The translations under genes and the position numbers were made by a program. 64,000 bases of DNA from Spirochaetaceae bacterium (GTDB lineage Bacteria > Spirochaetota > Spirochaetia > DSM-2461), in assembly GCA_051531975.1 (NCBI GenBank), contig JAOPTT010000009.1, positions 192,001 through 256,000 on the forward strand. Direction: 5' to 3'. This document shows positions 1 through 26,206 of this stretch, piece by piece (position 1 is the first letter of the stretch; each line of letters starts with the position of its first letter). Under the pieces are notes generated by a model. It was not told the DNA's origin. It worked only from the letters and a program-made list of their open reading frames with translations, and searched no databases.

Positions 1-1779
1 TGGTATGGATATTACTGATGTTCCAAGGGCAATCCAAAAAGCAAAAAGGAAAATCTGGGGTAAATTGTTGTAAATAGGGTTTAATAGATATTTTGTAAAT
101 CCACTTTCTCTTTTTATTGTAATCCCAGCAGATATAGCAAATCCAATAAGGGATATAACAGCTGTTATCACACTTGTAGCAAACCATGAAGACATAGCTA
201 ATAATGGGCTGAAAACTGTTATTAAACTCAATCCCATAGTAGTTAGAAGTCTTAAGGAGATGAAGGTTTTTTCTCTAGAGTTTAATAAGAATAGATCATT
301 TTTTATATTTTTTTTAGTTAATAAAAATACAAAGATGGATATTAACATTCCAGGTATAAGGAAGAGCCATCCATTCTCCAAACCCGGTTTAAAGATAGAC
401 TTACCTATTAATGGAAAGTCTTCTGATTCAGTTCTGGCTGATGACATTATTAATTTCATATCTTTAACAATTTCACTATTTTCATCTGCAACATTAATTT
501 TTTCACCAGGATCTGTTTTAAGGTTATATAGTTCTATTGGCCCATTTGGAAATAGACGGACAAATTTTCTAACAGCTTTCCAGTCATCTTTCCTAACAGC
601 CTGAAGCCCAACATTTTCATGGAATTCCCAATACAGGTAGTCATGTGTTTCCTGTTCATCTTTGTTACCAAGGAGGGTAGGCAGATATGAGATTCCGTCT
701 ATATTATCCGGTTTTTTTATTCCGTATATATCTGCCACAGTAGGCATAAAATCCCAGAATGCTGAAGGATGGTCACTAACCTGCCCAGGAGTTATTGTTC
801 CTGGCCATTTTGCAATTAGCGGTATTCTAATTCCACCTTCGTATAGATCTCTTTTAATACCTCTAAATGGACCAGAGCTGTTAAAAAACTCTGGATCTGC
901 ACCACCCTCTGCATGTGGCCCATTATCACTACTGAACATGATTAGAGTATTTTCATCAATTCCCAACTTTTCAAGTTTATCAATAATTTGACCTATATCG
1001 CTGTCCATTCTTGTCATCATTGCTGCAAACTTCTTCATGTTTTCAGGCCATGGTTGGTCTTTGTATGGTTCTATATCAGGAACCTGAAGCGCTGCATGGG
1101 GTATCGCGTATGCTAGATAGAGGAAAAAAGCATTGTTCCTGTTCTCTTCTATATATTCCAGTGTTTTATCTGTAAAAAGATCGTGAGTATAAGTTTCCCC
1201 ATCCAGTTCTAATATATTCTGATTTTCCCATATGTAGTCCGGGTAGTAGTTATGTGCCTGTCTTTGACAGTTATATCCGTAAAATTCATCAAATCCCTGT
1301 TTTTCAGGGGTTCCAGAACTTTCTGGGTATCCTAATCCCCACTTTCCAAATACTGCAGTCTCAATATCTTCATCCTGAAGCATTTGAGCAACTGTATATG
1401 TATTTTCAGTTAGAGGATGTTGACCTTCAGGCTGGACTTCCTTGTTTCCTCTAATATCAGTATGCCCTGTATGTTTACCGGTTAATAGACAACTTCTAGA
1501 TGGAGCACATACTGGAGCACCAGCATAGTGGTCTGTAAACATTATTCCATCATCGGCCATTTTATCAATATTGGGGGTTAATATCGTATCCTGTCCATAT
1601 TTACCAAAATCTCCATAACCCGCATCATCCGATAAGATAAATATGATATTAGGTCTTGTATCATTTACCTCTTTAGCCAATATAATTCTTGGTAATATAA
1701 GACCCATAATAATAAATAACACTATTTTTACCATGTTATTATTAATTGAATTGTCTAGTTTAATATAAAATTTTGCCAA
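1..1779 (-). CDS. Arylsulfatase (Cys-type formylglycine-dependent sulfatase) with a C-terminal multi-TM extension; 3' end runs off the window
   Basis: Not in the ORF track because it is open at the edge. Manual translation gives RPNIIFILSDDAGYGD, the CxPxR motif (VCAPSRSCLLTG), GKWGLG, SDNG and KRDLYEGGIRIP. Start is TTG 1779 after GAAGGTGG, or ATG 1734. Hydrophobic segments follow from ~370 to 1. Confidence 0.88.
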   Translation of the reverse strand, partial: MAKFYIKLDNSINNNMVKIVLFIIMGLILPRIILAKEVNDTRPNIIFILSDDAGYGDFGKYGQDTILTPNIDKMADDGIMFTDHYAGAPVCAPSRSCLLTGKHTGHTDIRGNKEVQPEGQHPLTENTYTVAQMLQDEDIETAVFGKWGLGYPESSGTPEKQGFDEFYGYNCQRQAHNYYPDYIWENQNILELDGETYTHDLFTDKTLEYIEENRNNAFFLYLAYAIPHAALQVPDIEPYKDQPWPENMKKFAAMMTRMDSDIGQIIDKLEKLGIDENTLIMFSSDNGPHAEGGADPEFFNSSGPFRGIKRDLYEGGIRIPLIAKWPGTITPGQVSDHPSAFWDFMPTVADIYGIKKPDNIDGISYLPTLLGNKDEQETHDYLYWEFHENVGLQAVRKDDWKAVRKFVRLFPNGPIELYNLKTDPGEKINVADENSEIVKDMKLIMSSARTESEDFPLIGKSIFKPGLENGWLFLIPGMLISIFVFLLTKKNIKNDLFLLNSREKTFISLRLLTTMGLSLITVFSPLLAMSSWFATSVITAVISLIGFAISAGITIKRESGFTKYLLNPIYNNLPQIFLFAFWIALGTSVISIP

Positions 1780-1893
1780 AAGACCCACCTTCAATTTTAC
1801 TTTAACATTGAATTTGTGTTTGTCAAGTAAAAAATGCCACACGTGTGCCATTGCTTGATAAATATGAAACTAATAAGTGCTCTAGAAAAATAA

Positions 1894-3936: not shown

Positions 3937-5235
3937 ATGAAAAGACAGTATTGTTTAACCATAACTATTTTATTCATTACAATATTCCAACTATCATGTA
4001 GTGGAGAGAGTGAAGAAAAAACTAATAACCCTATAATTTTAACAGTATGGGATTATAAATATGGAGAAGTGAATGCAGCAGGTCCAGTTTTCAAAGAGAT
4101 GGATCGTCTATTCATGGAACAATATCCAGACATCATTATAAAACACATTGGTAAATCTAGCGACCGGTATTTTGAGTCTTTAAAAATTGCATTGGCTGGT
4201 GGAACATCTCCTGATATTGCAATGTTTTCAGCTTCTAGTATCAATATACACGGAAATAACCTTATTGATCTTGATGATTATATAAATCCTTGGAGAGACC
4301 AAATCTCCGAATCTATATGGAAAACCTGTACAGTTAACAGAATTATAGGTGATCCTGTAAAAGTCTCTCCAATTACAATACAGGGACGAGGGTTTTATTA
4401 TAACAAAAAACTGTTTATTAAGGCCGGTCTTAATCCTGAAAATCCTCCAGTTGAGTGGAGTGATTTTTTAGCAGCTTGTGAGAAGTTAAAAGATGCGGAT
4501 ATTATTCCAATTATTTGGGGTAATAATAATGCTGAAGATTCAGGATATTGGTTATTCAAAACATTCTTAGGAACTTTTTACAATGATGAAGACCATCGTG
4601 ATTTTATCAGTTCATGGGATTTTAATTCAAAAGAGGTTAAAACTGCTATAAGTATGGTAAAAGAGTTACAGGATAGTGAATATCTGGATCCTCTTGGAAA
4701 CCTAACACCGCTATGGATGGATGCAATAGAAAAATTTAAAGAGGGGCAGGGTGCTATTTTTCATGGCCTTCTCTCTGATATAGCCCATTGGAAGGATTTT
4801 AGTGATACTCTTGGTAAAGACAATATTGGTTATTTCCCTAATATCAATCATCCAAATGCTAAATATAGAGATGCACAAATATTTGCAGGCGCTGGTATTT
4901 CATTTGGAATATACGAAAGTTGTGAAAATAAAGATGCAGCAGCTCTCTATCTTAAACATTACTCAACTGGGGAAGCACTTCTTTTATATTTAAAAAAAGC
5001 CGGAGCACTTCTTCCATATAAAGATCTTGATTATAGTTATACGGGTTATCCCATTGTTTATGAAATTATGAATTCTATAAATAATTTCTCAGTTACAGGT
5101 GGATTTGGACCTAAACTAAATAAAAAATATAATAATGACATCATTTCTAATTTGGAGTTACTTTTGAATACAAAAGAGATAACGGTAGATGAGTTTTTGA
5201 CGGCAATGCAAAACTCTATCGAAGTCATAGAATAG
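3937..5235 (+). CDS. Carbohydrate ABC transporter solute-binding protein (family 1), lipoprotein-type copy
   Basis: Lipobox-like FQLSC; GTSPDI and FYYNKKLF..AGL motifs of CUT1 SBPs. Confidence 0.85.
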   Translation: MKRQYCLTITILFITIFQLSCSGESEEKTNNPIILTVWDYKYGEVNAAGPVFKEMDRLFMEQYPDIIIKHIGKSSDRYFESLKIALAGGTSPDIAMFSASSINIHGNNLIDLDDYINPWRDQISESIWKTCTVNRIIGDPVKVSPITIQGRGFYYNKKLFIKAGLNPENPPVEWSDFLAACEKLKDADIIPIIWGNNNAEDSGYWLFKTFLGTFYNDEDHRDFISSWDFNSKEVKTAISMVKELQDSEYLDPLGNLTPLWMDAIEKFKEGQGAIFHGLLSDIAHWKDFSDTLGKDNIGYFPNINHPNAKYRDAQIFAGAGISFGIYESCENKDAAALYLKHYSTGEALLLYLKKAGALLPYKDLDYSYTGYPIVYEIMNSINNFSVTGGFGPKLNKKYNNDIISNLELLLNTKEITVDEFLTAMQNSIEVIE

Positions 5236-5501
5236 ATTAAAATATTTAAATAATATAAAAACTCCTCCTCAAGAACTGTGTATAAAATTCCTTAAAATAG
5301 TCAAAGTGCTGATTTTTAAACTTTTGAACAGATTTCAAAGACCATAAAGAACCATTTTAAATAAAAGATCACTTTTCAAAGTATACGGATTTGGCATCTC
5401 AGCACAATAATTTAATTAAGCTTCAATACAGTCCGGACTCTGTTTAAAGTTTATTACACGCTTATTTAATACAGCATTTAGTTTAATCAAAGGAGATTTA
5501 A

Positions 5502-6800
5502 ATGAAAAAAAGATTTTTTATCGTAGCATGTGTTTTATTTTTTTTAACCCTTCCAGTATTTAGTAATGGGAATAAAGAAGCAAAAGAAGATGGACCAATT
5601 ACATTAACAGTTTGGGACTTTAAATATGGTGAGGCAGAAGCTGCTGGTCCTGTCTTTAGAGAGATGGATAGATTATTTATGGAAAAGAATCCTGGAATAA
5701 TTATTGAGCATATAGCACAGCCAAATGATCGATATTATGAAATATTAAGAGTTGCAATGGCAGGTGGAACTTCTCCAGATGTTGCAATGTTTGGAGCTTC
5801 TCTTATTAATGTAAATGGAGAAGGTTTAATTGATCTTGATAGCTCTATTGATCCATGGAGAAACCAGATTCCTGAAGCTATCTGGACATCTTGTACAACA
5901 AATAAAGTTGCTGGAGACCCTGTTAAAGTCTCTCCAATAACAATTCAAGGCCGGGGTTTTTATTATAACAAAAAGTTATTTAAAGAAGCCGGTCTAGATC
6001 CTGAAAAGGCACCTATTGAATGGGCTGATTTTTTAGCAACATGTGAGCAGTTAAAAGCAGCTGATATTATTCCTATAATTTGGGGAAATAACAATCCTGG
6101 TGATACTGGTCTATGGTTGTTAAGAACATTCCTTGGTAGTTTCTATAATAATGAAGATCATCAAGATTTTATTAGTGGATGGGATTTTACATCACCAGGT
6201 GTTAAAACTGCAGTAAGTATGATTAAAGAGCTTAAAGATAAAGAATATCTTGATCCTAAAGGTATCTATACTCCGTTATGGATGGATGCAATTGAGAAGT
6301 TTAAAGCCGGAGAGGGAGCTATATTCCATGGTCTTCTTTCAGATATCGCTCATTGGAAAGATTTTAGTGATGCACTAGGTGAAGAAAATGTAGGGTATTT
6401 TGCTAATGTAAATCATCCAGATGCTAAATATCGAGATGCTCAGGTTTTTGTTGGAGCAGGTATATCATACGGTATATATGAAAGCAGTAAATACAAAGAA
6501 GCTGCAGCTCTATATCTAAAACATTACTCAGTTGGTGATGCACCACTACTATATCTTGAAAAAACAGGTGCACTGCTTCCAAATGCAGATATTGATTATA
6601 GTAAAACAGGTTATCCAATAGTTAATGATATTATGGATGATGTTAAGAAGTTCTCTGTATATGGAGGATTTGGTCCTAAATTAAATCAACAGATATCTTC
6701 AGATCTTGTTCCTAACTTAGGTCTGTTATTAAATACAGATGAAATTACAGTTGATGATTTTCTGAAAGAGATGCAGAAAAGTCTTGAGAATTCACAATAA
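5502..6800 (+). CDS. Carbohydrate ABC transporter solute-binding protein (family 1), paralog of 3937..5235
   Basis: Same length (432 aa) with long identical blocks; signal ...LPVFSNGNKE; SD AAGGAG. Confidence 0.9.
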   Translation: MKKRFFIVACVLFFLTLPVFSNGNKEAKEDGPITLTVWDFKYGEAEAAGPVFREMDRLFMEKNPGIIIEHIAQPNDRYYEILRVAMAGGTSPDVAMFGASLINVNGEGLIDLDSSIDPWRNQIPEAIWTSCTTNKVAGDPVKVSPITIQGRGFYYNKKLFKEAGLDPEKAPIEWADFLATCEQLKAADIIPIIWGNNNPGDTGLWLLRTFLGSFYNNEDHQDFISGWDFTSPGVKTAVSMIKELKDKEYLDPKGIYTPLWMDAIEKFKAGEGAIFHGLLSDIAHWKDFSDALGEENVGYFANVNHPDAKYRDAQVFVGAGISYGIYESSKYKEAAALYLKHYSVGDAPLLYLEKTGALLPNADIDYSKTGYPIVNDIMDDVKKFSVYGGFGPKLNQQISSDLVPNLGLLLNTDEITVDDFLKEMQKSLENSQ

Positions 6801-6807
6801 GTGAATT

Positions 6808-6830
6808 AGGCCGGTATGGTATATCGGCCT
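6808..6830 (+). terminator. Intercistronic stem-loop after the SBP gene
   Basis: aggccggtat-ggt-atatcggcct followed by T; typical stabilising hairpin downstream of an SBP gene. Confidence 0.5.
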
Positions 6831-6841
6831 TTATTAAAAGG

Positions 6842-7732
6842 ATGTTCAAATTGAGAAAAAAAACAATCAAAATAAACGAAACGTGGGATGCATGGCGATT
6901 ATTAACCCCTTTGATGGTACTAATGGTAGTTTTTATTTTAATACCTGTATTATCTAATTTTTATACTAGTTTTACAAAATGGGATTTAATATCAGCACCA
7001 AAATGGGTTGGATTCAAGAATTTCATTACTACATTTAATGATAAAAGATTTTTAAAGTCATTAGAAAATTCATTTATCCTTATAACTTATATTCCTGTTG
7101 CAACTTTTTTGCCTGTTATTCTCGCAGCTTTTTTAAAAGAAGGTTTACCAGGGTGGGGTATATTTAGAACAATATTATATCTTCCTAACGTAATGGGTGG
7201 AGTTTTAGTTGCTATTTTATATAAAACTTTTTTAAGACCTGATGGACCTTTTAATACTATTTTACGATCAATAGGTCTAAGCATATTGGCAAGAGACTGG
7301 CTTGTAGATAGTTCCCAGTCAATTCATACTGTTGGATTATTAACTATACTGTCTGTATTAGGCTTTGGTTGCATCTTTTTCATAGCTGCTATGAGTAGCA
7401 TTGATAGCTCACTTTATGAAGCGGCTGTTCTTGATGGAGCTAATTGGTGGCAATCATTTATCCATATTACAATACCGTCTATACGGTTTTCAATTGAGTT
7501 TTTTCTAGTTCTTCAGTTTATAAATGTATTTGCCAGGATGTTTGGCTTAATTTATAACCTCACATTTGGGGGTCCAGGGTTTTCAACCTATACATTTGAA
7601 TTTGGTGTATATGTACAGGGATTCCAACAATATAGATATGGTCTTGCAAGTGCATGGTCAGTAATATTGTTTTTCTTCTGCTCAATAATTGCAATAGTCC
7701 AGATAAGACTAATGAAAAGGAATGAATCATGA
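6842..7732 (+). CDS. Carbohydrate ABC transporter permease (MalF-like)
   Basis: EAA motif LYEAAVLDGANWWQSF; WVGFKNF. Confidence 0.92.
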   Translation: MFKLRKKTIKINETWDAWRLLTPLMVLMVVFILIPVLSNFYTSFTKWDLISAPKWVGFKNFITTFNDKRFLKSLENSFILITYIPVATFLPVILAAFLKEGLPGWGIFRTILYLPNVMGGVLVAILYKTFLRPDGPFNTILRSIGLSILARDWLVDSSQSIHTVGLLTILSVLGFGCIFFIAAMSSIDSSLYEAAVLDGANWWQSFIHITIPSIRFSIEFFLVLQFINVFARMFGLIYNLTFGGPGFSTYTFEFGVYVQGFQQYRYGLASAWSVILFFFCSIIAIVQIRLMKRNES

Positions 7733-8568
7733 ATAATACAATTAAATATAATCCGACACTAAAAATTATAATATATCTAGTTCTAATAGTCTTTTCTACA
7801 CTTGCTATTGGTCCCATAATATTCAGCTTTTTTACAAGTTTCCGTACAAATCCAGATTTTGTAGCTAATACACTAGCACTTCCTAAATCTGCATATTTTG
7901 AAAACTATAAATTTATGATTTTTGATGCTAAAATTTATAGATATTTTGTAAACAATTTAATCATCGGAATAGGTGGTTTATCTATATATATATTTGTTTC
8001 TACCAGTGCCGCATTTGCATTTGGTATACTTAGATTTACAGCAAGAAGAGCTATCTTTTTATTGGTTCTTTTTTTAATGATTTTCCCGCAAATGGTAATA
8101 GCAATACCTCTTTTTAAGATTTGTCTTAAATTGGGTATTTACAATACTAGATTAGGATTAATACTAGCATGGGCTGCATATATTGCACCATTTGGGACAT
8201 ATATGTTAACAACCTATTTTTCAACAATTCCAAGGGCTATATATGAATCTGCTCAAATTGATGGTGCTAAGATATATACAGTATTGTTTAGAATCATGAT
8301 GCCAATTGCTAAACCGATGATAACTACTTTGGCTATTATGGGGTTTTTAGGACTCTGGAACGAGTTTACATTCGCTTTACTTCTGCTTCAAACACCTAAG
8401 CTTCGTACTGTTTCTCTTGGTATTGCAATGTTAGCTGGAGAATATGGATTATCTGTACCAAGACTGTCTGCTGGTATAATGATATCGTCTTTAGTTCCTT
8501 TAGGTGTTTTCCTGATATTCCAAAACCGTGTTGCATTTGGAGCATCGGCAGGATCGGTTAAAGGATAA
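7729..8568 (+). CDS. Carbohydrate ABC transporter permease (MalG-like)
   Basis: IYESAQIDGA; WNEF; ATGA overlap with the preceding gene. Confidence 0.92.
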   Translation: MNNTIKYNPTLKIIIYLVLIVFSTLAIGPIIFSFFTSFRTNPDFVANTLALPKSAYFENYKFMIFDAKIYRYFVNNLIIGIGGLSIYIFVSTSAAFAFGILRFTARRAIFLLVLFLMIFPQMVIAIPLFKICLKLGIYNTRLGLILAWAAYIAPFGTYMLTTYFSTIPRAIYESAQIDGAKIYTVLFRIMMPIAKPMITTLAIMGFLGLWNEFTFALLLLQTPKLRTVSLGIAMLAGEYGLSVPRLSAGIMISSLVPLGVFLIFQNRVAFGASAGSVKG

Positions 8569-8656: not shown

Positions 8657-9481
8657 TTATTTAACAAACTGCATTTCAACTGTTAATCCGCCATTTTCAT
8701 TGATATAACAATTGATTTTTCCATTCATTTTATAAACCACAAGATTGTAAACTAATGTCATTCCAAGGCCTCTATATGTAGTTCCCATTTTTGTTGTAAA
8801 AAAGGGTTCAAATATTCTTTTGATAATAGTGTCTTCCATTCCGGTACCATTATCCCCAACTTTTAAAAAGAGCCTATTATTTTCAGAAAAGACATCTATG
8901 TTTATTACACCAGCGGTTACATCTTTTAATCCATGTACAAGGGAATTATTTATTAGATTTGCAACTATTTGTGAAAATGCGGAAGGATAACTATTAAAAA
9001 TCAGATTCTCTTGAATTTTTGTTTTTATTTGGTGACCACTAATTGTAAAACCGTCTGTTCTACCTAAATACTCTATTTCATTTTTTAAGTATTCCGATAA
9101 ATTAAATTGTTCTCTATGATCTTCAATTTTACACACAGCAGTCTCTTTTATTTCGTTAATTAGTGATACCGCACTATTTAAATTGGATTGAACCATATCA
9201 ACAGAGGTTGAAATCATATCTAATTTATCTCTGAGTAGACTTTTACAGCACGATTTAGATGACAAGATGTCCTGAACTTCTTTTAGTAGAAGCTCGATAT
9301 AGGAAGAAGCTGTTATTCCTACACCTAGTGGAGTATTCATTGTGTGGGATATTCCATTTACTAAAAAAATCATAGCCCTCATTTTTTCAGATTCAATAGA
9401 TTTGTCCTGATTCTCTACAAGCTTATTAAATCTGATATTGTGTTTATTTTCTATTGAATGAGTTGGGTATGAATCTAACAT
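8657..9481 (-). CDS. Sensor-less orphan histidine kinase (HisKA + HATPase_c), atypical
   Basis: GISHTMNTPLG H-box, NLINNSLVHG N-box, DNGTGM, IFEPFFTTK. Confidence 0.8.
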   Translation of the reverse strand: MLDSYPTHSIENKHNIRFNKLVENQDKSIESEKMRAMIFLVNGISHTMNTPLGVGITASSYIELLLKEVQDILSSKSCCKSLLRDKLDMISTSVDMVQSNLNSAVSLINEIKETAVCKIEDHREQFNLSEYLKNEIEYLGRTDGFTISGHQIKTKIQENLIFNSYPSAFSQIVANLINNSLVHGLKDVTAGVINIDVFSENNRLFLKVGDNGTGMEDTIIKRIFEPFFTTKMGTTYRGLGMTLVYNLVVYKMNGKINCYINENGGLTVEMQFVK

Positions 9482-9614
9482 AGGAATCTCCTTAAATATG
9501 CTCTAGTTTAATTATAAATCCATATGAATATTGGGGTAGTTTGATTTTTATGACTCTGTTTAATTAATAGGTTTTTGAATTTTAAATATTAACTTAATGT
9601 ATAAAAAAGCGTTC

Positions 9615-9651
9615 AGTAACATTGTGGACCCTGTGGATCCACAATGTTACT
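9615..9651 (-). terminator. Rho-independent terminator after the GH89 fusion
   Basis: 14-bp perfect stem agtaacattgtgga/tccacaatgttact, then a T-run a few nt downstream on the minus strand. Confidence 0.65.
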
Positions 9652-12600
9652 ATCTTTTCCGTAGTGTCTGTATTACTTCTTGTAACTGGTAATTATTATC
9701 TTCAAGTAGGAGTCTACTTTCATTTTTATCAATTGAAAAAAGTTCTTTTAAAATAGTCTGTGCTCGTTTTTGCAGTTTTTCATTTACACAGGCCACCTCT
9801 ATCATATAAGAACCTTCAACCTTCCCAAGCTGTATCATCACGCTGGATGATAATGTATTTAGAACCTTTTTAGTTGCTGTCCCGGCTTTCATTCTTGTTG
9901 AACCACATACAACTTCAGGACCGCTGTTTAGAGCTATGTGTTGATCAAAAAACTCTATTTCAGGGTATATATCACTTATTAGAATTGTTAGGCATCCAAG
10001 ATCTTTTCCTGCTGCTAAGGCTGAACGGACGTAGTAGGCTGTAGAACTTGCTGATATTCCAATAATAACATCCTCGGGTTTAGGTTTAATAAGTAATAAT
10101 TCTGGTATAGAACTTGCGTCTTCTTCATAGTTATATTCAATATCAAGGCAAGCATCTGCCAGCCCTCCGGATATTAAAGTAATTGAGTCCTCTTTTGGAA
10201 AACCATATGTACAATTAAGTTCCACTGCATCAAGGGCTGCGATTCGTCCACTTGAACCACAACCTACATAAATAAGGCGTCCTCCGTTACGTATGCGTTC
10301 AGTAATTAATACTGTACATAATGAAATTTCAGGGAGACTCTTTTTTATTGCCCTACTTGATTCCAGTTCCGCCTCTAAGAAGAGTGTTGATAACTCCAAA
10401 GGTGACATGTTTTGTAACTGTAGTGTAGGGTTATATACATCCTCAGTTCTTAGTTTAGAGTGATCCCCACCAAATCGAGACTTTTCTGAAACGGATTCTG
10501 AATGTGCAAGAGCTGCGGCACCGATCATCTGAAGTAAATTACCATCTTTTAATACCCGTAGTGTTGTTGTTGTTCCTTCTAACTGTTTCTGCAAATTAAA
10601 ACCAGCACGGTTACATGCTTCAACCAACCCTCCGGAAATAAGTACTTCATCTAGTTGATACATCAGCACTGCTATTTGAACTGCTTCACGTAGGACTTTT
10701 AAATATTTTTTCCTTTCGCTTTCGAAAGATGGAAGATTAAAAAATGCTACAAGATCACCCTCTGCCAGGTCGGAGAGGGCGCTTGCACTAATACGTTCAT
10801 CCATTGATTTCCCATCTAAATACAGAGATCCCAGTAGTGTATATTCCCCTCCAGGTCGCCAACGTCGTCCACTTTTTAATACAGAAAAACCTAAGCCGGT
10901 TCCTATTACCATAAGACCAGTATTACCTTTTGTTGATATTAGTGACTTTTCAGAAGCTCCAATAAGGGCTGCATCAGCATCATTAATCAGTGAAACAGGG
11001 CAGTTAAAAAAATGCTTTAACTTATCTATCCACCCGCTTTCGTTTAAAGGTCGTAGATGTGGTGAACATTTCTCAACGCATGTACCATGGTAGTTAACGA
11101 TACCCGCAGTTGATATGACTATTGCATCCACACGGTTACTTCCTAACATTTCTATTAGGCGTATAATCGTAAAAAATAAGTCATCGCTACTGGCTTTTTG
11201 TCCTAAAGGGCTTCTTACCTTCTTTGTCGGTGAAATCTTTTGTGGATGTACACCAACAGCAAGTGAGCCCTTAATCCAGCTACCACCAATATCGATTAAT
11301 ATATATTTCACTCTATTTTTTTTATATTTATTAGTCAGCTTTTTTACAATTTTATACTCATCTGTATATGCTTCTTCTGTGATTGAAGGATGTATAACCC
11401 AATCCCATTCAAGTATATTCATCTGTTTATTAAGTTTATCCTCATCTATCGGGTTACCTTCTCTTAAAGAACAACTACAAGCATCAAAAAATAGTTGCCA
11501 GCGTGGAAGGTGATATGTTAAATACATAGCGCTAAGATCTCTGTTTGCATAATCAACCAGTTCGTTGTTATCAAGGCTTCCCCATTTACTTATTATATTC
11601 CTTGCATCCTTCTCATAATATTCGATCTCATTTGTTGTTTCTCCTGTATTTCGCACTAAATTCAACCAGCTGTCTAATCTGAATTCTGAGCGGCTAGACA
11701 ATAGTGATGCAATATCCTTGATAAGGTCTTCAAACTCTATTCTATATTTATTAAAATCATTAATGTTTTTCTCTATATATGCTTTGTATATTTTTTTTCG
11801 TATTACACCTGAATGATTAACCAGAAATTCTCTTGTAAAATTCACCAGATCAAAACGGAATCTATCATTAGCTAAACAATTACTATAGGCAATACATAAT
11901 AGCTCGATTGCTTCTAGAAGAGTAGAATTATCATATCCTACAGTATCATCACCCCAAAGGCATGAACGGCCATCAAGTCCAGGGCGAGTCCTGATAAATC
12001 CTCCACAAAAAAGTTCAGGATTGGTATAATGGGAATAAATGGACTTATGTAGCAGGCTCCAAGCCTTTTTCACATTTTTGTCATCCTTTCCACACCGTCG
12101 TTCAGCATAAGATTGAATCCATTTTGAAGTGTCTATTGGTTCATCCTGCCATATCCTCTCTAATAAATAATCATAGACATGTGGATTATCATCTAAACCT
12201 TCTAAGGTTAAACCTATACCTGTCATAGTTTCTGTTCTACTATCAGTGAATGCTTTATTAAGTTTTTCCTCTATCAGATCTATTGGTCCAAGAAGTTTAG
12301 TTTGACCACCAAAATTTCCAAGATAACACCATAAGAAATTCTGAGAGTAGAAGCCATCAGTCTCTCTCCATAACTCTCTATTTTCACAATAATAATCCAA
12401 CATGATCAATTTATCTTTAGGTACTGCACTTAAATATGCCTTTACTCTTGGTGGTGTCCACTGCTCACTGTTATGGTAAAATAACCAACTCATCTGCAAC
12501 CAGACAGCATTGTTATTACTTTTTTTTAGAGAATTATAAATTGTCTCTGAGACTTCAGCTAGATAGTCAGGTTCCCAACTAGGAGGAATCAGTTCATTAA

Positions 12601-13480
12601 ATGGATCAGCTGCATAAACCTCACAATAGCCAAATTGTTTTTCCTGTTCTTTAAGAAATAGTTTCTGAATTTTATCAAAGTAGGGATCCTGTGGATCAAG
12701 AAACCATGTACTAAATTCCCTCTCAAAACCATTCCATGATTCCAATTGTTTGATACTTATTTCCGGAATGTATTTTGTAATCTCAAATGGGATATGCCCG
12801 CAGAATGCAGGTAGAACAGGGCGCATATTGAAACTCCTCTGTCGGGATAGAATCTTTTTCTGTAGTTTTTTTTGATTAATAATATAGCTCTCTGGAAGAG
12901 CGCCACCCCATTTATCTATAATTCCCATTCTTTGGAAGGGGAGATATGCTGGTCCAGTAAAAAAGTTAAGTATCTCTTTTTTACTTAAACCAAGTTGATT
13001 CCAGACTGTTTGCCAAATGGCTTCTTGTCCTGTTATTGCGAGTGGCATATTTATTCCATTAAGAGCCATCCAGTCTATAAGGCGTTCCCACTCATTCCAG
13101 CCCCAATATGGCATTGAATAGGAAAAAGTACAGTAATTCAAAAAAAATCTATCTTTTAATATTGATGATTTCCATACAGGTGTAGCTTGGGGTAGAACAT
13201 CTGGAACTTCTACAGGATTTTCTACTAACCAGCTTACCATGGTTTTACAGTCATATTTTAGATAGTGGTTTAATGCACAACATATCGATAGGTTATTATT
13301 ACCGGATAATACTATTTTACCGTTGTTATTACTAATCTCAAAATATTCATCATTATCATAGTTTTTTAATAGTTTTAATTCAAATCTTTCCTCATGCTGA
13401 GGTATCAGACGATGTATCATTTCACTTAAAGCCCGTTTGTCTTCATGCTCTGCTAAACTCTTATATATTTTAGTTTTCAT
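9650..13480 (-). CDS. Triple fusion: GH89 alpha-N-acetylglucosaminidase (aa ~1-720) + ROK sugar kinase (~724-995) + MurQ-like SIS etherase (~1008-1276)
   Basis: GH89: LNYCTFSYSMPYWGWNEWERLIDWMALNGINMPLA, DPFNE, GLTLEG. ROK: LIDIGGS, LINDADAALIG, IGTGLG. MurQ: GGRLIYVGCGSSGRIAALDAVE, GPEVVCGSTRMKAGTATKKVLNTLS. Confidence 0.88.
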   Translation of the reverse strand: MKTKIYKSLAEHEDKRALSEMIHRLIPQHEERFELKLLKNYDNDEYFEISNNNGKIVLSGNNNLSICCALNHYLKYDCKTMVSWLVENPVEVPDVLPQATPVWKSSILKDRFFLNYCTFSYSMPYWGWNEWERLIDWMALNGINMPLAITGQEAIWQTVWNQLGLSKKEILNFFTGPAYLPFQRMGIIDKWGGALPESYIINQKKLQKKILSRQRSFNMRPVLPAFCGHIPFEITKYIPEISIKQLESWNGFEREFSTWFLDPQDPYFDKIQKLFLKEQEKQFGYCEVYAADPFNELIPPSWEPDYLAEVSETIYNSLKKSNNNAVWLQMSWLFYHNSEQWTPPRVKAYLSAVPKDKLIMLDYYCENRELWRETDGFYSQNFLWCYLGNFGGQTKLLGPIDLIEEKLNKAFTDSRTETMTGIGLTLEGLDDNPHVYDYLLERIWQDEPIDTSKWIQSYAERRCGKDDKNVKKAWSLLHKSIYSHYTNPELFCGGFIRTRPGLDGRSCLWGDDTVGYDNSTLLEAIELLCIAYSNCLANDRFRFDLVNFTREFLVNHSGVIRKKIYKAYIEKNINDFNKYRIEFEDLIKDIASLLSSRSEFRLDSWLNLVRNTGETTNEIEYYEKDARNIISKWGSLDNNELVDYANRDLSAMYLTYHLPRWQLFFDACSCSLREGNPIDEDKLNKQMNILEWDWVIHPSITEEAYTDEYKIVKKLTNKYKKNRVKYILIDIGGSWIKGSLAVGVHPQKISPTKKVRSPLGQKASSDDLFFTIIRLIEMLGSNRVDAIVISTAGIVNYHGTCVEKCSPHLRPLNESGWIDKLKHFFNCPVSLINDADAALIGASEKSLISTKGNTGLMVIGTGLGFSVLKSGRRWRPGGEYTLLGSLYLDGKSMDERISASALSDLAEGDLVAFFNLPSFESERKKYLKVLREAVQIAVLMYQLDEVLISGGLVEACNRAGFNLQKQLEGTTTTLRVLKDGNLLQMIGAAALAHSESVSEKSRFGGDHSKLRTEDVYNPTLQLQNMSPLELSTLFLEAELESSRAIKKSLPEISLCTVLITERIRNGGRLIYVGCGSSGRIAALDAVELNCTYGFPKEDSITLISGGLADACLDIEYNYEEDASSIPELLLIKPKPEDVIIGISASSTAYYVRSALAAGKDLGCLTILISDIYPEIEFFDQHIALNSGPEVVCGSTRMKAGTATKKVLNTLSSSVMIQLGKVEGSYMIEVACVNEKLQKRAQTILKELFSIDKNESRLLLEDNNYQLQEVIQTLRKR

Positions 13481-13598
13481 ATGAACTCCTCTTATATATT
13501 CTTGTATTTTTATTGCTCTGGATTTAAAGTATAGATATCATTTTAGATCATATGGCTATATTGTATTTAGCAATTTCATTCACAATTGGGGGCAATTT

Positions 13599-14423
13599 AT
13601 GTCAATGTCAAAGTTAAAAGGAATCACTCCAACATATACAGCACCAAATGTTACTGTGCATCAAAACAGATGCCCTATAGAGAAATTTTCAGGGGCATGG
13701 TTTCTTAAAATACCTAAAGAGGTGACAACTGTAACTTTTACTCCTCCAGGGCATCTGCTTCATTATATTATTAAAGGTGAATATGTAGTTTTAATAGAAG
13801 GTAGGGAATATAAAGTTAAACAAGGCGATATTATTTATTATTATGGTGTGGAAGAAGTCGCAGCTATTAATAAGGCAGAGGCGGTAGAGTTTTATTCAAT
13901 ATCCTTTCATGCTCCTGATCTTAATTTTAATACTGGTGATAACAGGGTATTTCATGACCAGAAATTTATGAAGCCATTATTTGAAACTATTTATACTAAT
14001 AATAATATGCCGGGGTTACACTCTCTTATCACAATTTTTGATAACCTTTTTCAAATTATAGGCAACTTAATTATTAAAGAAACAATGTTAATTCAACAAC
14101 ATACGCACTCTGAGTTGTGGGATAGGGTTGAGCGTTATATAAAAGAGAATCGTATGTTTCGACTTTCGATTACAGAGCTATCTGAATGGGGTGGTGTAAG
14201 TGCATCATCCCTTCACCGTTCATGTATAAATCACTGTGGTGTGAGCCCTGGTAAAAGAATGAAAATGCTTCGTATGGCTGAAGCAAAAGGTTTAATACAA
14301 TTTACAGAACTTTCAATTTCTGAGATCTCTATAGAACTTGGGTATGAGAGACCACATGAGTTATCTAGGGAGGTGAAACACTTTTTTGGTGAATCTCCTA
14401 TGAGGTTAAGACAATCAATATAA
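13599..14423 (+). CDS. AraC-family transcriptional regulator
   Basis: Cupin-like N-terminus; C-terminal ISIELGYERPHELSREVKHFFGESP. Confidence 0.85.
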   Translation: MSMSKLKGITPTYTAPNVTVHQNRCPIEKFSGAWFLKIPKEVTTVTFTPPGHLLHYIIKGEYVVLIEGREYKVKQGDIIYYYGVEEVAAINKAEAVEFYSISFHAPDLNFNTGDNRVFHDQKFMKPLFETIYTNNNMPGLHSLITIFDNLFQIIGNLIIKETMLIQQHTHSELWDRVERYIKENRMFRLSITELSEWGGVSASSLHRSCINHCGVSPGKRMKMLRMAEAKGLIQFTELSISEISIELGYERPHELSREVKHFFGESPMRLRQSI

Positions 14424-17460: not shown

Positions 17461-18513
17461 TTAGGAGTTCTTATTACCCCAGTCGTAAAAAGCTTGTAGT
17501 AGTGTAAAATATTTATCCATAGGCAGGTATTTAGGTACAGAGTTTCCAGTTCCTAAGGCATAGGATCCTTTAGCGGCTGTTCTTTCTAACATTTCATAAC
17601 ATCTATTATAAACTGCTTCTTTAGAGCTTCTAATAATGAAATCCACATCAATTCCACCCATTATTGATATTCTACCCTGGTATTTCTCCCAGGCATCCTC
17701 TACAGGCATTATTGCATCTTCATAGGAGTGTTTTCCTTCGTATTTTAAGTCATTAATAACCACATCCATTATAGGGTATATATTTCCACAGGAGTGAAGA
17801 ACTACAGGCCTGCCTGAATCATGTATAACATCAGTTATTTTCTGATGCCATGGGAAAAGCCAGTCTTCCATTTGTGATGGTGATAAAAATGTCTGGGTAT
17901 TAAAACCCCAGTCATCGTTGGATATACAGGCTCCTACAACTTCAAACTCACATATTTTTTTATAATATTCCACCAGACGAATTCCTACAGCATCAAATAG
18001 ATCTTTTACAAGCCCCGGTTCATCTATCATCATATAACTAAGATTTTCAAAACCTACAAGTGCAATTACATTTTCCTCAACTCCACCGGGACCACTGGCT
18101 ACAAGTTTCATACCATTAGGAATATAAGGCATTATATCTTCTATAAAAGACCAGTCTATATCTTTAACTTCCGGCCACTTGAAATTCTCAAACGATTCAC
18201 GGTCTACAATATCAGACCCGTCATTAAGGGAGTATGATTTTGATTCCTTCTGGTCGTGAACCACAAAAGTAAATTCTGCTGGAGACATTAATGTTGCATA
18301 ATCATATCCAGCATTATTAAATGCATTAATCATTTTAAACCGTCTCTGAAAATCTTCTGACCCTGGGGGGATTTCCATTCCCTCGGTTAACTTATCGTAG
18401 ACATCATCATTCATATAAAACTCAAATAGAACCGGTCTATCTGTTTTTTCCTGTTTTAAAACCTTAAGTAGATAGTTAAAGTCCGCTTTCCATTTTACTT
18501 TTCTTTTATTCAT
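17461..18513 (-). CDS. URO-D/MtaA-CmuA superfamily protein (not HemE)
   Basis: SNDDWGFNTQTFLSP, LHSCGNI, MGGIDVD, GTGNSVP. Confidence 0.8.
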   Translation of the reverse strand: MNKRKVKWKADFNYLLKVLKQEKTDRPVLFEFYMNDDVYDKLTEGMEIPPGSEDFQRRFKMINAFNNAGYDYATLMSPAEFTFVVHDQKESKSYSLNDGSDIVDRESFENFKWPEVKDIDWSFIEDIMPYIPNGMKLVASGPGGVEENVIALVGFENLSYMMIDEPGLVKDLFDAVGIRLVEYYKKICEFEVVGACISNDDWGFNTQTFLSPSQMEDWLFPWHQKITDVIHDSGRPVVLHSCGNIYPIMDVVINDLKYEGKHSYEDAIMPVEDAWEKYQGRISIMGGIDVDFIIRSSKEAVYNRCYEMLERTAAKGSYALGTGNSVPKYLPMDKYFTLLQAFYDWGNKNS

Positions 18514-19546: not shown

Positions 19547-20743
19547 TTAGCCCTTTATAAGCCGAATCATAGTTTTATAATTTGTCATAACCCTATCTGT
19601 TATCTCTCTACCGTATGGACTTGATGAAGGCATTAATACAAATCCTTTTGCTTTCATACCTGACTCAATAGATTTTGCAGTTTTAGCTTCAAATTCTTTA
19701 GGCTCCATATTTTCTATGTCTGCAATTTCCACATTACCAAAAAGTGCTATATCTTTTCCATAATGTTCTGCAACATAATCCAGTTCTACATCACCCTGGG
19801 GTGGTGGTTCTATTGGGTCAATTGCATCTACATTCATATCAGATATAGTCTCCAGGATATTTTTTAATTTACCATGGGAATGAAGACGGACAAAACCTCC
19901 GTTTTTTTGTATCTGTTTAACCATTGGACCGGTATATTTTTGAACATAATCTTTAAAAAGGTGGGGTGGTAGATAGGGTTCAGACGCGTATTCCGGACCG
20001 TATATTCTCCATAATCTACCAGGGAAATCTGCTGAAACCTGTTTAGTTTTGCTGTAAAACGATTTAGATAACTTCTCTAGTAACTGATGAAATAAACTCT
20101 GTTCAGTCATAGCTATCATAGTGTAATTTTCAAAGCTGAATAGCCCTGCAGCTTCAGCTAATGGATCTCCGGTATCAACCATAACAAGTCCTTTGTCTCC
20201 AATAATTTTCTCTTCATTAAATAGGTCTGAGACATCATATTTTGTCTCAAACAGTTCATCTGGAAGGCTAAGGAATAGTTTTAGATCTTCTTCGGTATCT
20301 AAAAGGTGTTTTAGTGTCCAGATTGTATCAAGATCTCTATCTCTTCTTGTAAGAGATGTAAGTTCTTTTTTCCCAATTGTTAAAGTGGTTTTTGTAAACA
20401 TACTTGAACCTTTTTCGTATGTTTCAGTTTTAAAAAATTGATTATATAGAGGATGTATGTTGGTTTTTTGTGGATATCCAAATCTGATTATATCAGTATG
20501 TGCATCGCTTATTTCAAGTAGTTCCTTCCAGGACTGTGAATTGTAGATATTGTATGGATCTTTATCGTTAGGATCGATTTTAAACCCACCTATTTCATAA
20601 AAATTTAACCCTGGTCTATCCACAGTTCTACCATTTAAAATTGCTGTTAATCTCTCTTTCCCTGTCATAAAACATACCTTCTTTATTATTAGTTTGTTCA
20701 TGTTATATGGGGCAATATCAAAGGTATTTAGCATATAGTACAA
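19547..20743 (-). CDS. URO-D/MtaA superfamily protein (likely start ATG 20668, MTGKERL)
   Basis: MTGKERL...DRP N-terminus; LHSHG, IDPIEPPPQGD, LFGNVE. Confidence 0.75.
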   Translation of the reverse strand: MYYMLNTFDIAPYNMNKLIIKKVCFMTGKERLTAILNGRTVDRPGLNFYEIGGFKIDPNDKDPYNIYNSQSWKELLEISDAHTDIIRFGYPQKTNIHPLYNQFFKTETYEKGSSMFTKTTLTIGKKELTSLTRRDRDLDTIWTLKHLLDTEEDLKLFLSLPDELFETKYDVSDLFNEEKIIGDKGLVMVDTGDPLAEAAGLFSFENYTMIAMTEQSLFHQLLEKLSKSFYSKTKQVSADFPGRLWRIYGPEYASEPYLPPHLFKDYVQKYTGPMVKQIQKNGGFVRLHSHGKLKNILETISDMNVDAIDPIEPPPQGDVELDYVAEHYGKDIALFGNVEIADIENMEPKEFEAKTAKSIESGMKAKGFVLMPSSSPYGREITDRVMTNYKTMIRLIKG

Positions 20744-22774: not shown

Positions 22775-23527
22775 ATGAAAAGAGACAAGCGGTTTTTAAA
22801 TAAATTCAACGAATTAGCTGAACAGTTTGATGTTGAAATGAATAAGCAGATGGATGCTGCAGTTAGTTTAATGGTTAAGGCAATCAAAGAAGATCGTCTT
22901 ATATATATTTTTGGTGGTGGTGGACACACTTGCTTGGTTATGCAGGAACTATTCTGGCGTGCAGGTGGGTTAGCAAATCTTTGCCCGATGATTGACTTTG
23001 CTATTCACCCTGTTACACCAGCATACATGTATCTCGCCCATGAGCGGATGCATGGAGTAGGAAATGCTCTGGTTGACTATTATGGTGTTGGTGAAGATGA
23101 CCTTGTTATTATATTTCATAGCTATGGTTTCAATGCACCAACTATTGACTGTGCTTTAAGAGCAAAAGAGGTTGGAGCCCAGGTTGTAGGTGTTTCTTCC
23201 AGTGAATGGCACAGAACCATTCCTGCAGATTTTCCTATCCGTCACGATAGTGGGAAAAATTTGTTTGATGTAGCCGATATCTGCCTTGATGATTTTGTAC
23301 CATTTGGGGATACAGTACTTACTACTGAAGGTTTTGATCTGCCATTTACTGGAATTTCGTCAATTATAGACTTTTATATAGCACATCGACTTGAATCGGA
23401 GTGTATTAAACAATGTGTTGTAGATGGAATTAAGCCTCCAGTTTGGTGTAGTGCAAATGTCCCAGGTGGAGATGAAAAGAATGCTGACCTACGTAAAAAA
23501 TATAATCCTCGGATTAAATTTTTATAA
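22775..23527 (+). CDS. SIS (sugar isomerase) domain protein, UPF0309-like
   Basis: IYIFGGGGH, ELFWRAGGL, PPVWCSANVPGGDEKN. Confidence 0.8.
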   Translation: MKRDKRFLNKFNELAEQFDVEMNKQMDAAVSLMVKAIKEDRLIYIFGGGGHTCLVMQELFWRAGGLANLCPMIDFAIHPVTPAYMYLAHERMHGVGNALVDYYGVGEDDLVIIFHSYGFNAPTIDCALRAKEVGAQVVGVSSSEWHRTIPADFPIRHDSGKNLFDVADICLDDFVPFGDTVLTTEGFDLPFTGISSIIDFYIAHRLESECIKQCVVDGIKPPVWCSANVPGGDEKNADLRKKYNPRIKFL

Positions 23528-23610: not shown

Positions 23611-24642
23611 ATGAGCGTAAAAGAAACTGGTGTAAGTTATTATGGGGTATCCTATGTGGAACATGCCCGAAAAGATTTCGAAGAGATGAAGGCTCACAAT
23701 GTAACTGCTGTATTATTATCTCTTAGTGAATTTGATATTTTCTTTTGGAAGCCAAATATACCAAAAATTGTTGATGCAGCTAAGAAATTAGGACTGAAAG
23801 TTTACTTAAATACCTGGGGGATCGGAAAGTTTTTTGGTGGAGAACCTCCGTCTGTTTTCCTACAGGAGTGTAGTATCTACGACCGTCAATGGACAGCAAT
23901 ATCAGGAGAACCTATTGCAGCTGCTTCTCCTAGTTCCCCGGCATTCCGTGATTACTTTTATGGGATTCTTGAAGAATTGGCTTCTACTTGTAATGCGGAT
24001 GGATTCTTTTGGGACGAACCACACTATGCTATGCCAGTAGCCCCCATCAGTTATCAATCAACTGCGGATTTTACCTGCCGTAGTCCAATTACTCAAAAGA
24101 TTTTTAAAGATAAATATGGTTATGAAATGCCTAAGTCATTAACTAAAACAGTGTTAAAATTTCGTTTTGATCAAGCCAATGAAATACTTTCAGAGGGTAG
24201 TCGAATTGTTAAATCAATTAATCCCAACCTAATTGTAACACAGTGTTCTCTACCTGCAGATAACCATTTTTATGCTACCCAAGCCCGGGGATTCGATAAT
24301 TGGGAGAAAATTGCATATAACAAAAACTATGATGTATTTTCTACATCTATTTTAGTTGATGGAAATGATCCTTTGGATGCACACCGTGATATGGCAAGAA
24401 AAACAGTAAAATTAGCTAAGGCAAACAACAAGCCTTCCCAACGTTGGATTCAGTCATTTTTTAGGTCACCACGGGATCTAGAAAACATTCGTAATGTTGT
24501 AAAAATTTATGCTGATGAAGGAGTCGATTCCATCTTTTCCTGGACATATAGAGCAGGGAAGGGAACTTGTCTGTCCGCTCCAGAGCCTGATAAAGTATGG
24601 GATATTTTAGGAGAGGCCTATGGAGAAGTACTTAAGAAGTGA
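23611..24642 (+). CDS. Uncharacterised TIM-barrel glycoside-hydrolase-like protein
   Basis: GVSYYG..., DAAKKLGLKVY and DGFFWDEPH pattern; sugar-operon context. Confidence 0.55.
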   Translation: MSVKETGVSYYGVSYVEHARKDFEEMKAHNVTAVLLSLSEFDIFFWKPNIPKIVDAAKKLGLKVYLNTWGIGKFFGGEPPSVFLQECSIYDRQWTAISGEPIAAASPSSPAFRDYFYGILEELASTCNADGFFWDEPHYAMPVAPISYQSTADFTCRSPITQKIFKDKYGYEMPKSLTKTVLKFRFDQANEILSEGSRIVKSINPNLIVTQCSLPADNHFYATQARGFDNWEKIAYNKNYDVFSTSILVDGNDPLDAHRDMARKTVKLAKANNKPSQRWIQSFFRSPRDLENIRNVVKIYADEGVDSIFSWTYRAGKGTCLSAPEPDKVWDILGEAYGEVLKK

Positions 24643-25956: not shown

Positions 25957-26057
25957 TATCAGAGGTACTAGCATCTAATAATACATAGGGGAGTTACAGT
26001 CGGTGTAGATCCTGTAACTGTCTATCTCTTTAATCATAATATCTTTACTAAAATTTA

Positions 26058-26206
26058 ATTTTATTTAAAGATTTTGTAACTTTTTGAAAGTTGAGTTGTT
26101 TTATTAGTTATACAACGTAATAATTTTCGTTTAAATATACTCCTTTTTTTGGATCCTGCTACTAGCAGGGTCTTTTTTTATATAAGATATAAATTGAATA
26201 ATTAGC
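26058..26206 (+). repeat. Left copy of a ~150-bp imperfect inverted repeat flanking hipBA
   Basis: Aligns by eye with the reverse complement of 28367..28521 (ttatttaaa..tttgtaactttttg.aagtt.agttgt.tta...taataatttt...ctccttttttt.ggatcctgctactag.agggtcttttttt). Confidence 0.9.
26109..26179 (+). ncRNA. Putative ~70-nt small RNA, copy 1 (anti-SD seed + terminator)
   Basis: Upstream TGTAAC-N17-GTTTTA; CTCCTTTTTTT; hairpin ggatcctgct-act-agcagggtct + T-run; ends approximate. Confidence 0.5.

Follow-up and report, generated by a model that had tools for sequence, protein, structure and literature searches.

To our knowledge, enzymes of the MurQ type are known almost exclusively from the recycling of peptidoglycan and as the ancestors of the glucokinase regulatory protein, GKRP. 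A preprint on the latter traces GKRP back to MurQ, reports that phosphosugars bind where the active site used to be, and confines the interaction of GKRP with glucokinase to jawed vertebrates (10.64898/2026.05.08.723886). Three other described systems come close to the one considered here: the murTKQ system of Tannerella forsythia, which follows a transporter-kinase-etherase logic and whose kinase, MurK, is not a ROK protein by sequence (PMC10465942); NagS (SCO4393), a MurQ-related SIS enzyme that acts at C2/C3 of N-acetylglucosamine 6-phosphate (GlcNAc-6-P), dehydrating both this sugar and N-acetylmannosamine 6-phosphate (ManNAc-6-P) (PMC12680351); and Bt3590 of Bacteroides thetaiotaomicron, an α-N-acetylglucosaminidase of glycoside hydrolase family 89 (GH89) directed at heparan sulfate and heparosan (PMC8225759).

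Here, we describe a single gene, P0001, that joins a GH89 glycosidase, a ROK-like kinase and a MurQ-like SIS domain. It lies in a 64,000-nucleotide stretch of DNA from a Spirochaetaceae bacterium (assembly GCA_051531975.1, contig JAOPTT010000009.1, positions 192,001 to 256,000 of the forward strand; hereafter the ‘window’, numbered from its first letter). We regard the protein as a rare, tri-domain extension of an uncharacterised family in which a ROK-type kinase is fused to a MurQ paralogue (‘ROK-SIS’); kinase-etherase fusions as such are already known. We propose, and would give the idea an even chance, that it is a three-step catabolic fusion for glycans capped with α-linked N-acetylglucosamine (GlcNAc). 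The parts of the gene, and the signals that flank it, are laid out as follows:

9650..13480, minus strand: whole open reading frame of P0001 (GH89, ROK-like kinase and MurQ-like SIS), 1276 amino acids plus stop
13486..13493, minus strand: Shine-Dalgarno-like sequence, AAGAGGAG, 5 nucleotides 5' of the ATG, read directly from the sequence
13190..13432, minus strand: NAGLU_N (PF12971), residues 17-97, 78 bits
12146..13150, minus strand: NAGLU TIM barrel (PF05089), catalytic, residues 111-445, 446 bits
12593-12595, minus strand: codon of E296, in DPFNE; with E427, the putative acid/base and nucleophile pair
12200-12202, minus strand: codon of E427, in GLTLEG; the partner of E296 in that putative pair
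11327..12121, minus strand: NAGLU_C (PF12972), C-terminal helical domain, residues 454-718, 213 bits
10466..11308, minus strand: zinc-less ROK-type kinase domain, residues 725-1005, with the motifs DIGGSWIKG (D730), NDADAA (N833, D834), IGTGLGF (860-866) and ISGGL (949-953)
9653..10465, minus strand: MurQ-fold SIS domain, residues 1006-1276, with the motifs GCGSSGR (1073-1079), LDAVE (E1087), IEYNYEED (E1115, Y1118, E1119, E1120, D1121) and GSTRMKAGTATKK (1193-1205)
9614..9652, minus strand: terminator-like hairpin followed by a T-run, 18-pair stem with 7 G-C pairs, overlapping the stop codon

The reading frame, of 1276 codons as the initial annotation had claimed, starts with ATG and is free of internal stops. 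Since the window comes from a metagenome-assembled genome, and X1 (probably its source sample) is the only DNA run found to hold this stretch, an assembly chimera or a functionless, decaying pseudo-fusion has to be considered; we find either scarcely credible. A Logan contig from X1 spans positions 9500-13600 with no differences, no gaps and a uniform depth of about 44, such that a second assembler (not a set of independent reads, as X1 is probably the source sample) yields an identical 4.1-kb stretch; the stop between GH89 and ROK that would have undone the fusion does not appear in it. Two more full-length fused proteins, P0170 (1278 amino acids, 56% identity) and P0003 (1267 amino acids, 36% identity), share the same short domain junction, all of the catalytic motifs are intact, and the gene has its own Shine-Dalgarno site and terminator. 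The hairpin was called by a consensus scan, which implies no functional proof; as it overlaps the stop codon, the gene looks to be monocistronic. X1 is labelled a marine metagenome. No RNA run is listed for the stretch, and metatranscriptome contigs of the same sample include none on the fused gene; these results are uninformative about expression.

The tri-domain architecture is rare: just three clusters at 90% identity (P0001, P0002/P0170 and P0003) combine GH89, ROK and SIS among 5.8 billion sequences, and neither the fused gene nor a GH89 match was found in 40 relatives of the window’s genome. A search for related loci with the whole fused protein as query returned only two unrelated GH89 genes, and full-text literature searches found no published description of either the GH89-ROK-SIS or the ROK-MurQ architecture. 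Whether the architecture is already common and characterised thus has a divided answer; the ROK-MurQ pair recurs, uncharacterised in the literature searched, and it is the form with GH89 that is rare.

In the glycosidase portion the three-domain architecture of GH89 is complete, with every domain above its Pfam cut-off. In an alignment with human NAGLU (4xwh, E 3e-137), E296 and E427 fall on its FNE and PEG motifs, where they match E316 and E446, which we take to be the catalytic glutamates, and both are invariant across the three fused proteins. The human enzyme is the better match (462 bits, versus 304 for the mucin-specific GH89 of C. perfringens), and the nearest standalone GH89s reach only 42-46% identity. 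Whilst the fused domain resembles human NAGLU in keeping all three GH89 domains and both glutamates, it differs from it, and from Bt3590, in having no signal peptide and in being joined to a kinase and a SIS domain. Judged by eye rather than with a signal-peptide predictor, the N-terminus MKTKIYKSLAEHEDKRALSEM is devoid of any hydrophobic run. The earlier description of an intact GH89, with both motifs and no signal peptide, is borne out by Pfam, the 4xwh alignment and this N-terminus, and the cytoplasmic location that it had assigned to the protein fits both the lack of a signal peptide and the presence of an adjacent ABC importer. We also came across P0201 (987 amino acids), which couples a GH89 to a glycerophosphodiester phosphodiesterase domain (PF03009), and which hints that some GH89s may act on α-GlcNAc-decorated, teichoic-acid-like polymers.

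The kinase and SIS portions belong together in a family of their own. Among 1.84 billion representatives searched with HMMER, 26 of the best 150 matches align over both domains, in proteins of ~520-600 amino acids with 36-50% identity. A DNA scan for the family motif (pattern DAVE.xCT[FY]G), with one genome per species, found a full ROK-SIS gene of 520-630 amino acids at 48 of 50 loci, none of them fused to GH89; as the scan finds only members with the exact motif, 48 is a lower bound. The carriers are Bacteroidota, Verrucomicrobiota and Lentisphaerota, with single records titled Thermodesulfobacteriota and Hyphomicrobiales, and the ESM Atlas holds one 193-member cluster of the same architecture, named only ‘MurNAc-6-P etherase family protein’ (for N-acetylmuramic acid, MurNAc). 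The family is sparse; at E <= 1e-90, no other ROK-SIS was found in 400 further sampled genomes from the phylum of locus L011 (Draconibacterium). Across 58 family sequences from three phyla, D6, G8, N109, D110, G136, T137 and G140 of the kinase are invariant, as are E363, E391, E395, E396 and D397 of the SIS domain.

Two other ways of finding members were abandoned. The DNA pattern GSTRMKAGTATK was dropped as a marker because it is not family-specific, and a search with motifs from alignment A1, which are shared with canonical MurQ, returned ordinary MurQ at 79 of 80 loci, leaving L011 as the sole member.

Other MurQ fusions exist (AnmK-MurQ, BadF-kinase-MurQ and GH3-MurQ), and by analogy these point the same way, towards consecutive steps. 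Like them, and like murTKQ of Tannerella forsythia, the ROK-SIS systems bring together a transporter, a sugar kinase and a MurQ-type enzyme, suggestive of consecutive steps; unlike them, the kinase is of the ROK type, the transporter is NagP-like, the SIS domain is from another clade and a glycosidase can form a third domain. A 162-member, mostly ascomycete cluster in the ESM Atlas (~674 amino acids) pairs a BadF-type GlcNAc kinase with a GKRP_SIS_N/MurQ-like domain, and so kinase-MurQ fusions occur in fungi as well.

What ties this family to GH89 is first of all its genomic neighbourhood. A GH89 gene lies within 10 kb of ROK-SIS at 11 of the 48 loci, as opposed to none of 194 control loci around other MurQ homologues, where the controls differ in taxonomy from the family loci, some of them are shorter, and related genomes are not independent. 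At 10 loci the distance is 7 kb or less; at all 10 the two genes are co-stranded, with GH89 directly upstream in at least 6. These standalone GH89 neighbours have signal, lipoprotein or TAT (twin-arginine translocation) N-termini, and ROK-SIS is flanked by transporters, namely a NagP-like member of the major facilitator superfamily (MFS) at 11 loci, an SSF symporter at 6 and a sugar porter at 4. With GH89 secreted, ROK-SIS cytoplasmic and a sugar transporter usually alongside, the link between the proteins must be an imported, freed monosaccharide.

The second tie is the fusion itself. In a tree of SIS domains, P0001 and P0170 fall near Akkermansiaceae-type sequences and P0003 near Chthoniobacter-type sequences, and an approximately unbiased (AU) test, run after a FastTree result was known, rejects the grouping of the three GH89-fused proteins (p = 0.0056), from which it follows that the fusion arose twice. 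Two independent GH89 fusions are, to judge by the sequences, a strong sign of consecutive function. The release-phosphorylate-de-etherify assembly line put forward in the initial annotation is hence supported in its coupling of glycosidase, kinase and SIS domain, on the strength of the ROK-SIS family, the GH89 neighbourhoods, the two fusions and the other kinase-MurQ fusions; the nature of the last step is a separate matter, to which we return below. Removal of a lactyl ether sits less easily with a SIS clade apart from canonical MurQ and with Phe or Tyr in the column of its second catalytic glutamate, and the α-linked lactyl amino sugar of that annotation is a hypothetical substrate.

Within 7 kb of ROK-SIS at the 48 loci we also find SusD (10), SusC (9), sulfatase (8), GFO/IDH/MocA oxidoreductase (7), N-acylglucosamine 2-epimerase (5), URO-D/MtaA-like (5), GH20 (4) and GH109 (3) genes. 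Given neighbours as varied as these, ROK-SIS serves systems that release N-acetylhexosamines (HexNAc) in general. A protein of ~865 amino acids (L011, 5355-7955, plus strand) has homologues that immediately precede ROK-SIS in L230 and L244 and are separated from it by one GH89 gene in L221; it has no Pfam, NCBIfam or PDB sequence match, and an Atlas features search relates it to (α/α)6 glycosidase-like clusters (rhamnosidase- or cellobiose-phosphorylase-like), so it may be a glycoside hydrolase of this pathway that has yet to be described.

Turning to the kinase, the Pfam ROK profile matches residues 727-875 at 28.5 bits (cut-off 22.9), covering profile positions 2-146 of 294 only. The ATP motifs and catalytic aspartate of ROK kinases are kept (D730, N833-D834, G860-G864 and G950-G951) and do not vary within the family. 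The cysteine-rich zinc motif is absent from the kinase domain in alignments of both the fused protein and the family, and LLGSLYLDG stands where PPGMK has LGHLEIDG, with LLGS in place of the E-x-G-H sugar motif; these two motifs are what we take to mark canonical ROK proteins. Of the original assignment as a ROK kinase, a ROK-type domain therefore stands and a canonical ROK does not, since the zinc motif is missing. Searched against the PDB, the family profile finds its best kinase match, over the full length, in N-acetylmannosamine kinase 5nck (E 6e-24), followed by 6q26/6q27. When residues 725-1276 are modelled in AlphaFold2 from the 58 family sequences, the ROK-SIS half emerges confidently as one body (predicted local distance difference test, pLDDT, 92.1; predicted template-modelling score, pTM, 0.91), and Foldseek aligns the model to 5nck in a ROK fold (template-modelling score TMt 0.68). 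By profile and by fold, then, the closest structures are the N-acetylmannosamine kinases of F. nucleatum (5nck) and S. aureus (6q26/6q27). The likeness to these NanK-type enzymes extends to the presence of the ATP and catalytic-aspartate motifs and the absence of the cysteine zinc motif (5nck and 6q26 being, we presume, structures without zinc), and the difference lies in an identity of ~20% and the change from E-x-G-H to LLGS.

This kinship lends itself to an alternative in which there is no leaving group at all; the freed sugar would be GlcNAc or ManNAc without substituents, with the SIS domain being either a C2 (or C3) epimerase working via an enolate or enal, as an analogue of NanK plus NanE, or a NagS-like GlcNAc-6-P dehydratase. 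The 2-epimerase found at 5 of the 48 loci is a true N-acylglucosamine 2-epimerase (660 bits, cut-off 600), ordinary HexNAc is what the glycosidases nearby release, the window has a NagS homologue at a distance of 9 kb, and NagS itself shows that a MurQ-related protein can dehydrate GlcNAc-6-P and ManNAc-6-P (PMC12680351). We nevertheless think this alternative rather improbable. The best kinase match in the PDB may mirror a zinc motif lost in both rather than a substrate in common; sialic-acid genes are absent among the 31 annotated neighbour clusters; and the benefit is unclear, as the NagA/NagB route already handles GlcNAc-6-P. In a PDB sequence search the fused SIS domain has no match to the NagS structure (9eol) at E <= 0.001, and it clusters with MurQ-type sequences.

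The motifs GRLIYVGCGSSGR, LDAVE and GSTRMKAGTA, noted when the sequence was first annotated, are indeed present in the SIS domain. Pfam GKRP_SIS_N matches residues 1056-1156 (36 bits), and the NCBIfam MurQ subfamily model NF003915 matches residues 1008-1272 at 224 bits (cut-off 168); the MurQ equivalog model TIGR00274 (181, cut-off 302) and NF009222 (188, cut-off 255) both stay below their cut-offs. MurQ structures 4s12, 4lzj and 1nri are matched at E of about 1e-37, and in Foldseek the SIS part of the AlphaFold2 model superposes on MurQ with a TMt of 0.85-0.91, a root-mean-square deviation of about 2 Å and 34-37% identity. As in MurQ, the fold, the phosphate-binding motifs, the first catalytic glutamate (DAxE) and GSTRMKAGTA are all kept, with E1087 in LDAVE, GSSGR and SAS common to the ROK-SIS and canonical groups.

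The two groups are nonetheless distinct. We take Glu83 and Glu114 (the latter in EGAED) to be the first and second catalytic glutamates of E. coli MurQ; the canonical E111-G-A-E114-D115 becomes E-x-x-[F/Y]-E-E-D in ROK-SIS, where an invariant glutamate (E1119) stands one position after the Glu114 column, in that of canonical Asp115. Likewise, DA[S/A]ECPPT becomes DAVE[I/L]PCT, with C1090 replacing a proline, and AGGxxAL becomes AGGxADA, with D1109 replacing an alanine. In a tree of 124 SIS domains, 62 of 62 ROK-SIS sequences plus one fragment split from 61 other MurQ homologues with full support in the Shimodaira-Hasegawa-like approximate likelihood-ratio test (SH-aLRT 100); by sequence, the domain is a MurQ paralogue, separate from the housekeeping enzyme. 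Unlike canonical MurQ, it is always fused to a kinase, and it sits in glycan-utilisation loci instead of beside AnmK.

These data bear upon a rival explanation, cell-wall salvage. Here, the SIS domain would be a true MurNAc 6-phosphate (MurNAc-6-P) etherase working with a ROK domain that phosphorylates MurNAc or GlcNAc, as a fused analogue of Tannerella murTKQ, whilst GH89 would strip α-GlcNAc from wall polymers (teichoic acids, linkage units) in the same necromass, with both sugars ending as GlcNAc-6-P. The NF003915 score and the MurQ fold are as expected, transporter-kinase-etherase is a known logic (that of murTKQ; PMC10465942), AnmK- and BadF-kinase-MurQ fusions are common, and P0201 hints at teichoic-acid-like substrates for GH89. 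ROK-SIS is, moreover, the only MurQ homologue in 3 of the 22 carrier genomes that possess AnmK (G448, G462 and G480), which speaks for a possible etherase role.

We still judge salvage unlikely, if deserving of serious attention. NF003915 scores are bimodal in the 47 carrier genomes (304-399 bits for canonical MurQ, 226-264 for ROK-SIS), and 28 of the 47 keep a canonical MurQ alongside ROK-SIS. Of the 47 genomes, 22 have AnmK; in 4 of these it has a canonical MurQ within 15 kb, and in 0 of 22 a ROK-SIS. Added to this are the separate SIS clade with its shifted second catalytic motif, the equivalog models that fall below cut-off, and neighbours such as SusC/D, sulfatases, GH20 and GH109, with no peptidoglycan-recycling family among the 31 annotated neighbour clusters. 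The window’s own genome, in which nagA and nagB-like genes occur elsewhere, lacks AnmK as well as any second MurQ or GH89.

The initial annotation had raised a second role for the SIS domain, as a regulator of the kinase in the manner of GKRP. It would then be a non-catalytic phosphosugar sensor, like the mammalian protein, and would act in cis on the kinase or else on the glycosidase. There are points of likeness in the MurQ-derived SIS fold, the binding of phosphosugars by GKRP and the tie to a sugar kinase; the Pfam match is to GKRP_SIS_N, the Glu114 column is aromatic, and a pTM of 0.91 suggests a fixed kinase-SIS interface. Descent of GKRP from MurQ, with phosphosugars bound in the old active site, sets a precedent, although the same preprint has the GKRP-glucokinase interaction arising in jawed vertebrates only (10.64898/2026.05.08.723886). 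GKRP, found in vertebrates only, consists of a MurQ duplication and targets in trans an enzyme of the hexokinase family, whereas a single SIS unit stands here in cis, with its acidic residues kept; the duplicated SIS and lid of GKRP are not found, and GKRP chains match over a stretch of 47-60 residues only. Across 58 sequences from three phyla, neither the acidic residues nor the phosphate-binding motifs vary, and 3 of 23 members (P0027, P0032 and P0039) combine decayed kinase motifs with an intact set in the SIS domain, where a mere regulator of the kinase would be expected to show the reverse. Regulation is thereby disfavoured, and we would put its chances as slim.

Synthesising these findings, we return to the proposal of a three-step catabolic fusion, for which we infer the enzymatic activities, the order of the steps and the C3 group from the domains and their surroundings. 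Oligosaccharides, probably sulfated and of glycosaminoglycan, mucin or microbial type, would first meet a periplasmic sulfatase, which would trim them, and then enter the cell through the neighbouring ABC system. In the cytoplasm, the NAGLU-like GH89 domain would hydrolyse a terminal α-GlcNAc-type residue, and the zinc-less, NanK-like ROK domain would phosphorylate the freed N-acetylhexosamine at O6. We suggest that the SIS domain, as a catalytically competent MurQ paralogue, might then deprotonate C2 of the open-chain 6-phosphate, with elimination and re-addition at C3, to give GlcNAc-6-P for NagA/NagB. As to what C3 carries within this proposal, our rough odds lean towards a lactyl or other carboxyalkyl ether, with another 3-O leaving group (sulfate, methyl or glycosyl) a close second and no group at all a lesser, if real, prospect.

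We also speculate, as a long shot worth stating, that ROK-SIS could be a kinase-coupled HexNAc-6-phosphate 3-O-lyase that strips 3-O-sulfate, 3-O-methyl, carboxyalkyl or 3-O-glycosyl groups, and not D-lactate, from amino sugars of sulfated marine or host glycans, by MurQ-type β-elimination and rehydration; the E-x-x-[F/Y]-E-E-D motif would then be an adaptation to the leaving group.

Several points weigh against the three-step proposal. We know of no characterised GH89 that accepts anything other than unsubstituted, terminal α-GlcNAc, and with a fused GH89 this similar to NAGLU, an obvious need for a step at C3 is missing. The canonical Glu114 column is Phe or Tyr in all ROK-SIS proteins (by MAFFT and hhalign), such that MurQ-type catalysis is not guaranteed. 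For the genomic link, 11 of 48 versus 0 of 194 overstates the significance, given the differing taxonomy of the controls and the non-independence of related genomes, and the AU test was performed with a FastTree result already in hand. The presence of GH89 at 11 of the 48 loci only, with GH20, GH109, epimerase, GFO and URO-D genes elsewhere, means that ROK-SIS is not tied to α-GlcNAc alone. Lastly, it is from proximity only that we infer a connection of the sulfatase and the ABC importer with the fused gene.

These and other genes of the window are arranged as follows:

1..1851, minus strand: sulfatase with an SGSH_C domain and, for formylglycine, a CAPSR motif; has an internal start resembling a signal peptide and runs off the window
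3937..8568, plus strand: CUT1-type ABC importer by Pfam, a candidate oligosaccharide importer (solute-binding proteins at 3937-5235 and 5502-6800; permeases at 6842-7732 and 7729-8568)
8657-9481, minus strand: soluble histidine-kinase-like protein, 274 amino acids, HATPase_c only, best NCBIfam match the LIC_12097 family
13599..14423, plus strand: AraC-family regulator (Pfam HTH_18, AraC_binding), divergent from the fused gene and, from its position, a candidate local regulator
17461-18513 and 19547-20743, minus strand: pair of URO-D / MtaA-CmuA-like genes, each with an AraC regulator next to it
22775-23527, plus strand: SIS_2 protein, 250 amino acids, a NagS/SCO4393 homologue (PDB 9eol, E 1.2e-26)
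23611-24642, following the NagS homologue: 343-amino-acid protein without a family
24697-25956, next in order: GFO/IDH/MocA oxidoreductase

The importer has weak NgcE-like matches, and its two binding proteins have lipoprotein-like N-termini; the cell is taken to be diderm from its AcrB, HlyD and OEP genes. The histidine-kinase-like gene lies just downstream of the fused gene, with the terminator-like hairpin between them. The NagS homologue is a gene distinct from the fused one, and phmmer places homologues of this SIS_2 protein and of the 343-residue protein next to the ROK-SIS gene of a Chthoniobacter metagenome-assembled genome (L223). In 4 of its 5 loci the URO-D-like gene is directly beside ROK-SIS, followed in L213 and L250 by the NagP-like MFS transporter; no corrinoid partner of the URO-D-like genes was seen. 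The window also encodes a membrane AraC-type regulator and a cytoplasmic GHL6 protein. Further along, positions 26001-30000 have a G+C content of 0.26, against about 0.33-0.35 around them, and may be foreign DNA; they include a HipA-family kinase gene (26317-27621) and a 259-amino-acid open reading frame without a family. At 45266-51097 (plus strand) there is a hybrid sensor kinase of 1943 amino acids with two SBP_bac_3 domains, PAS, HisKA/HATPase and two receiver domains.

Finally, the analysis defines a separate MurQ paralogue, one that is always fused to a ROK domain and resides in polysaccharide-utilisation loci of glycan-degrading bacteria from sea, soil and gut, and that is tied to GH89 by its neighbourhood and by two independent fusions. 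Should it prove to be an ordinary etherase, the value would be one of annotation, with MurNAc salvage wired into glycan-utilisation loci; a 3-O-lyase, if true, would offer a means of clearing blocked GlcNAc without a sulfatase or glycosidase. If its substrate is not MurNAc-6-P, the family would represent an unrecognised step in the catabolism of amino sugars or of glycosaminoglycans and mucin, and the tri-domain protein would be a convenient single polypeptide with which to find that step, as whatever its GH89 cleaves should release what the other two domains act on.

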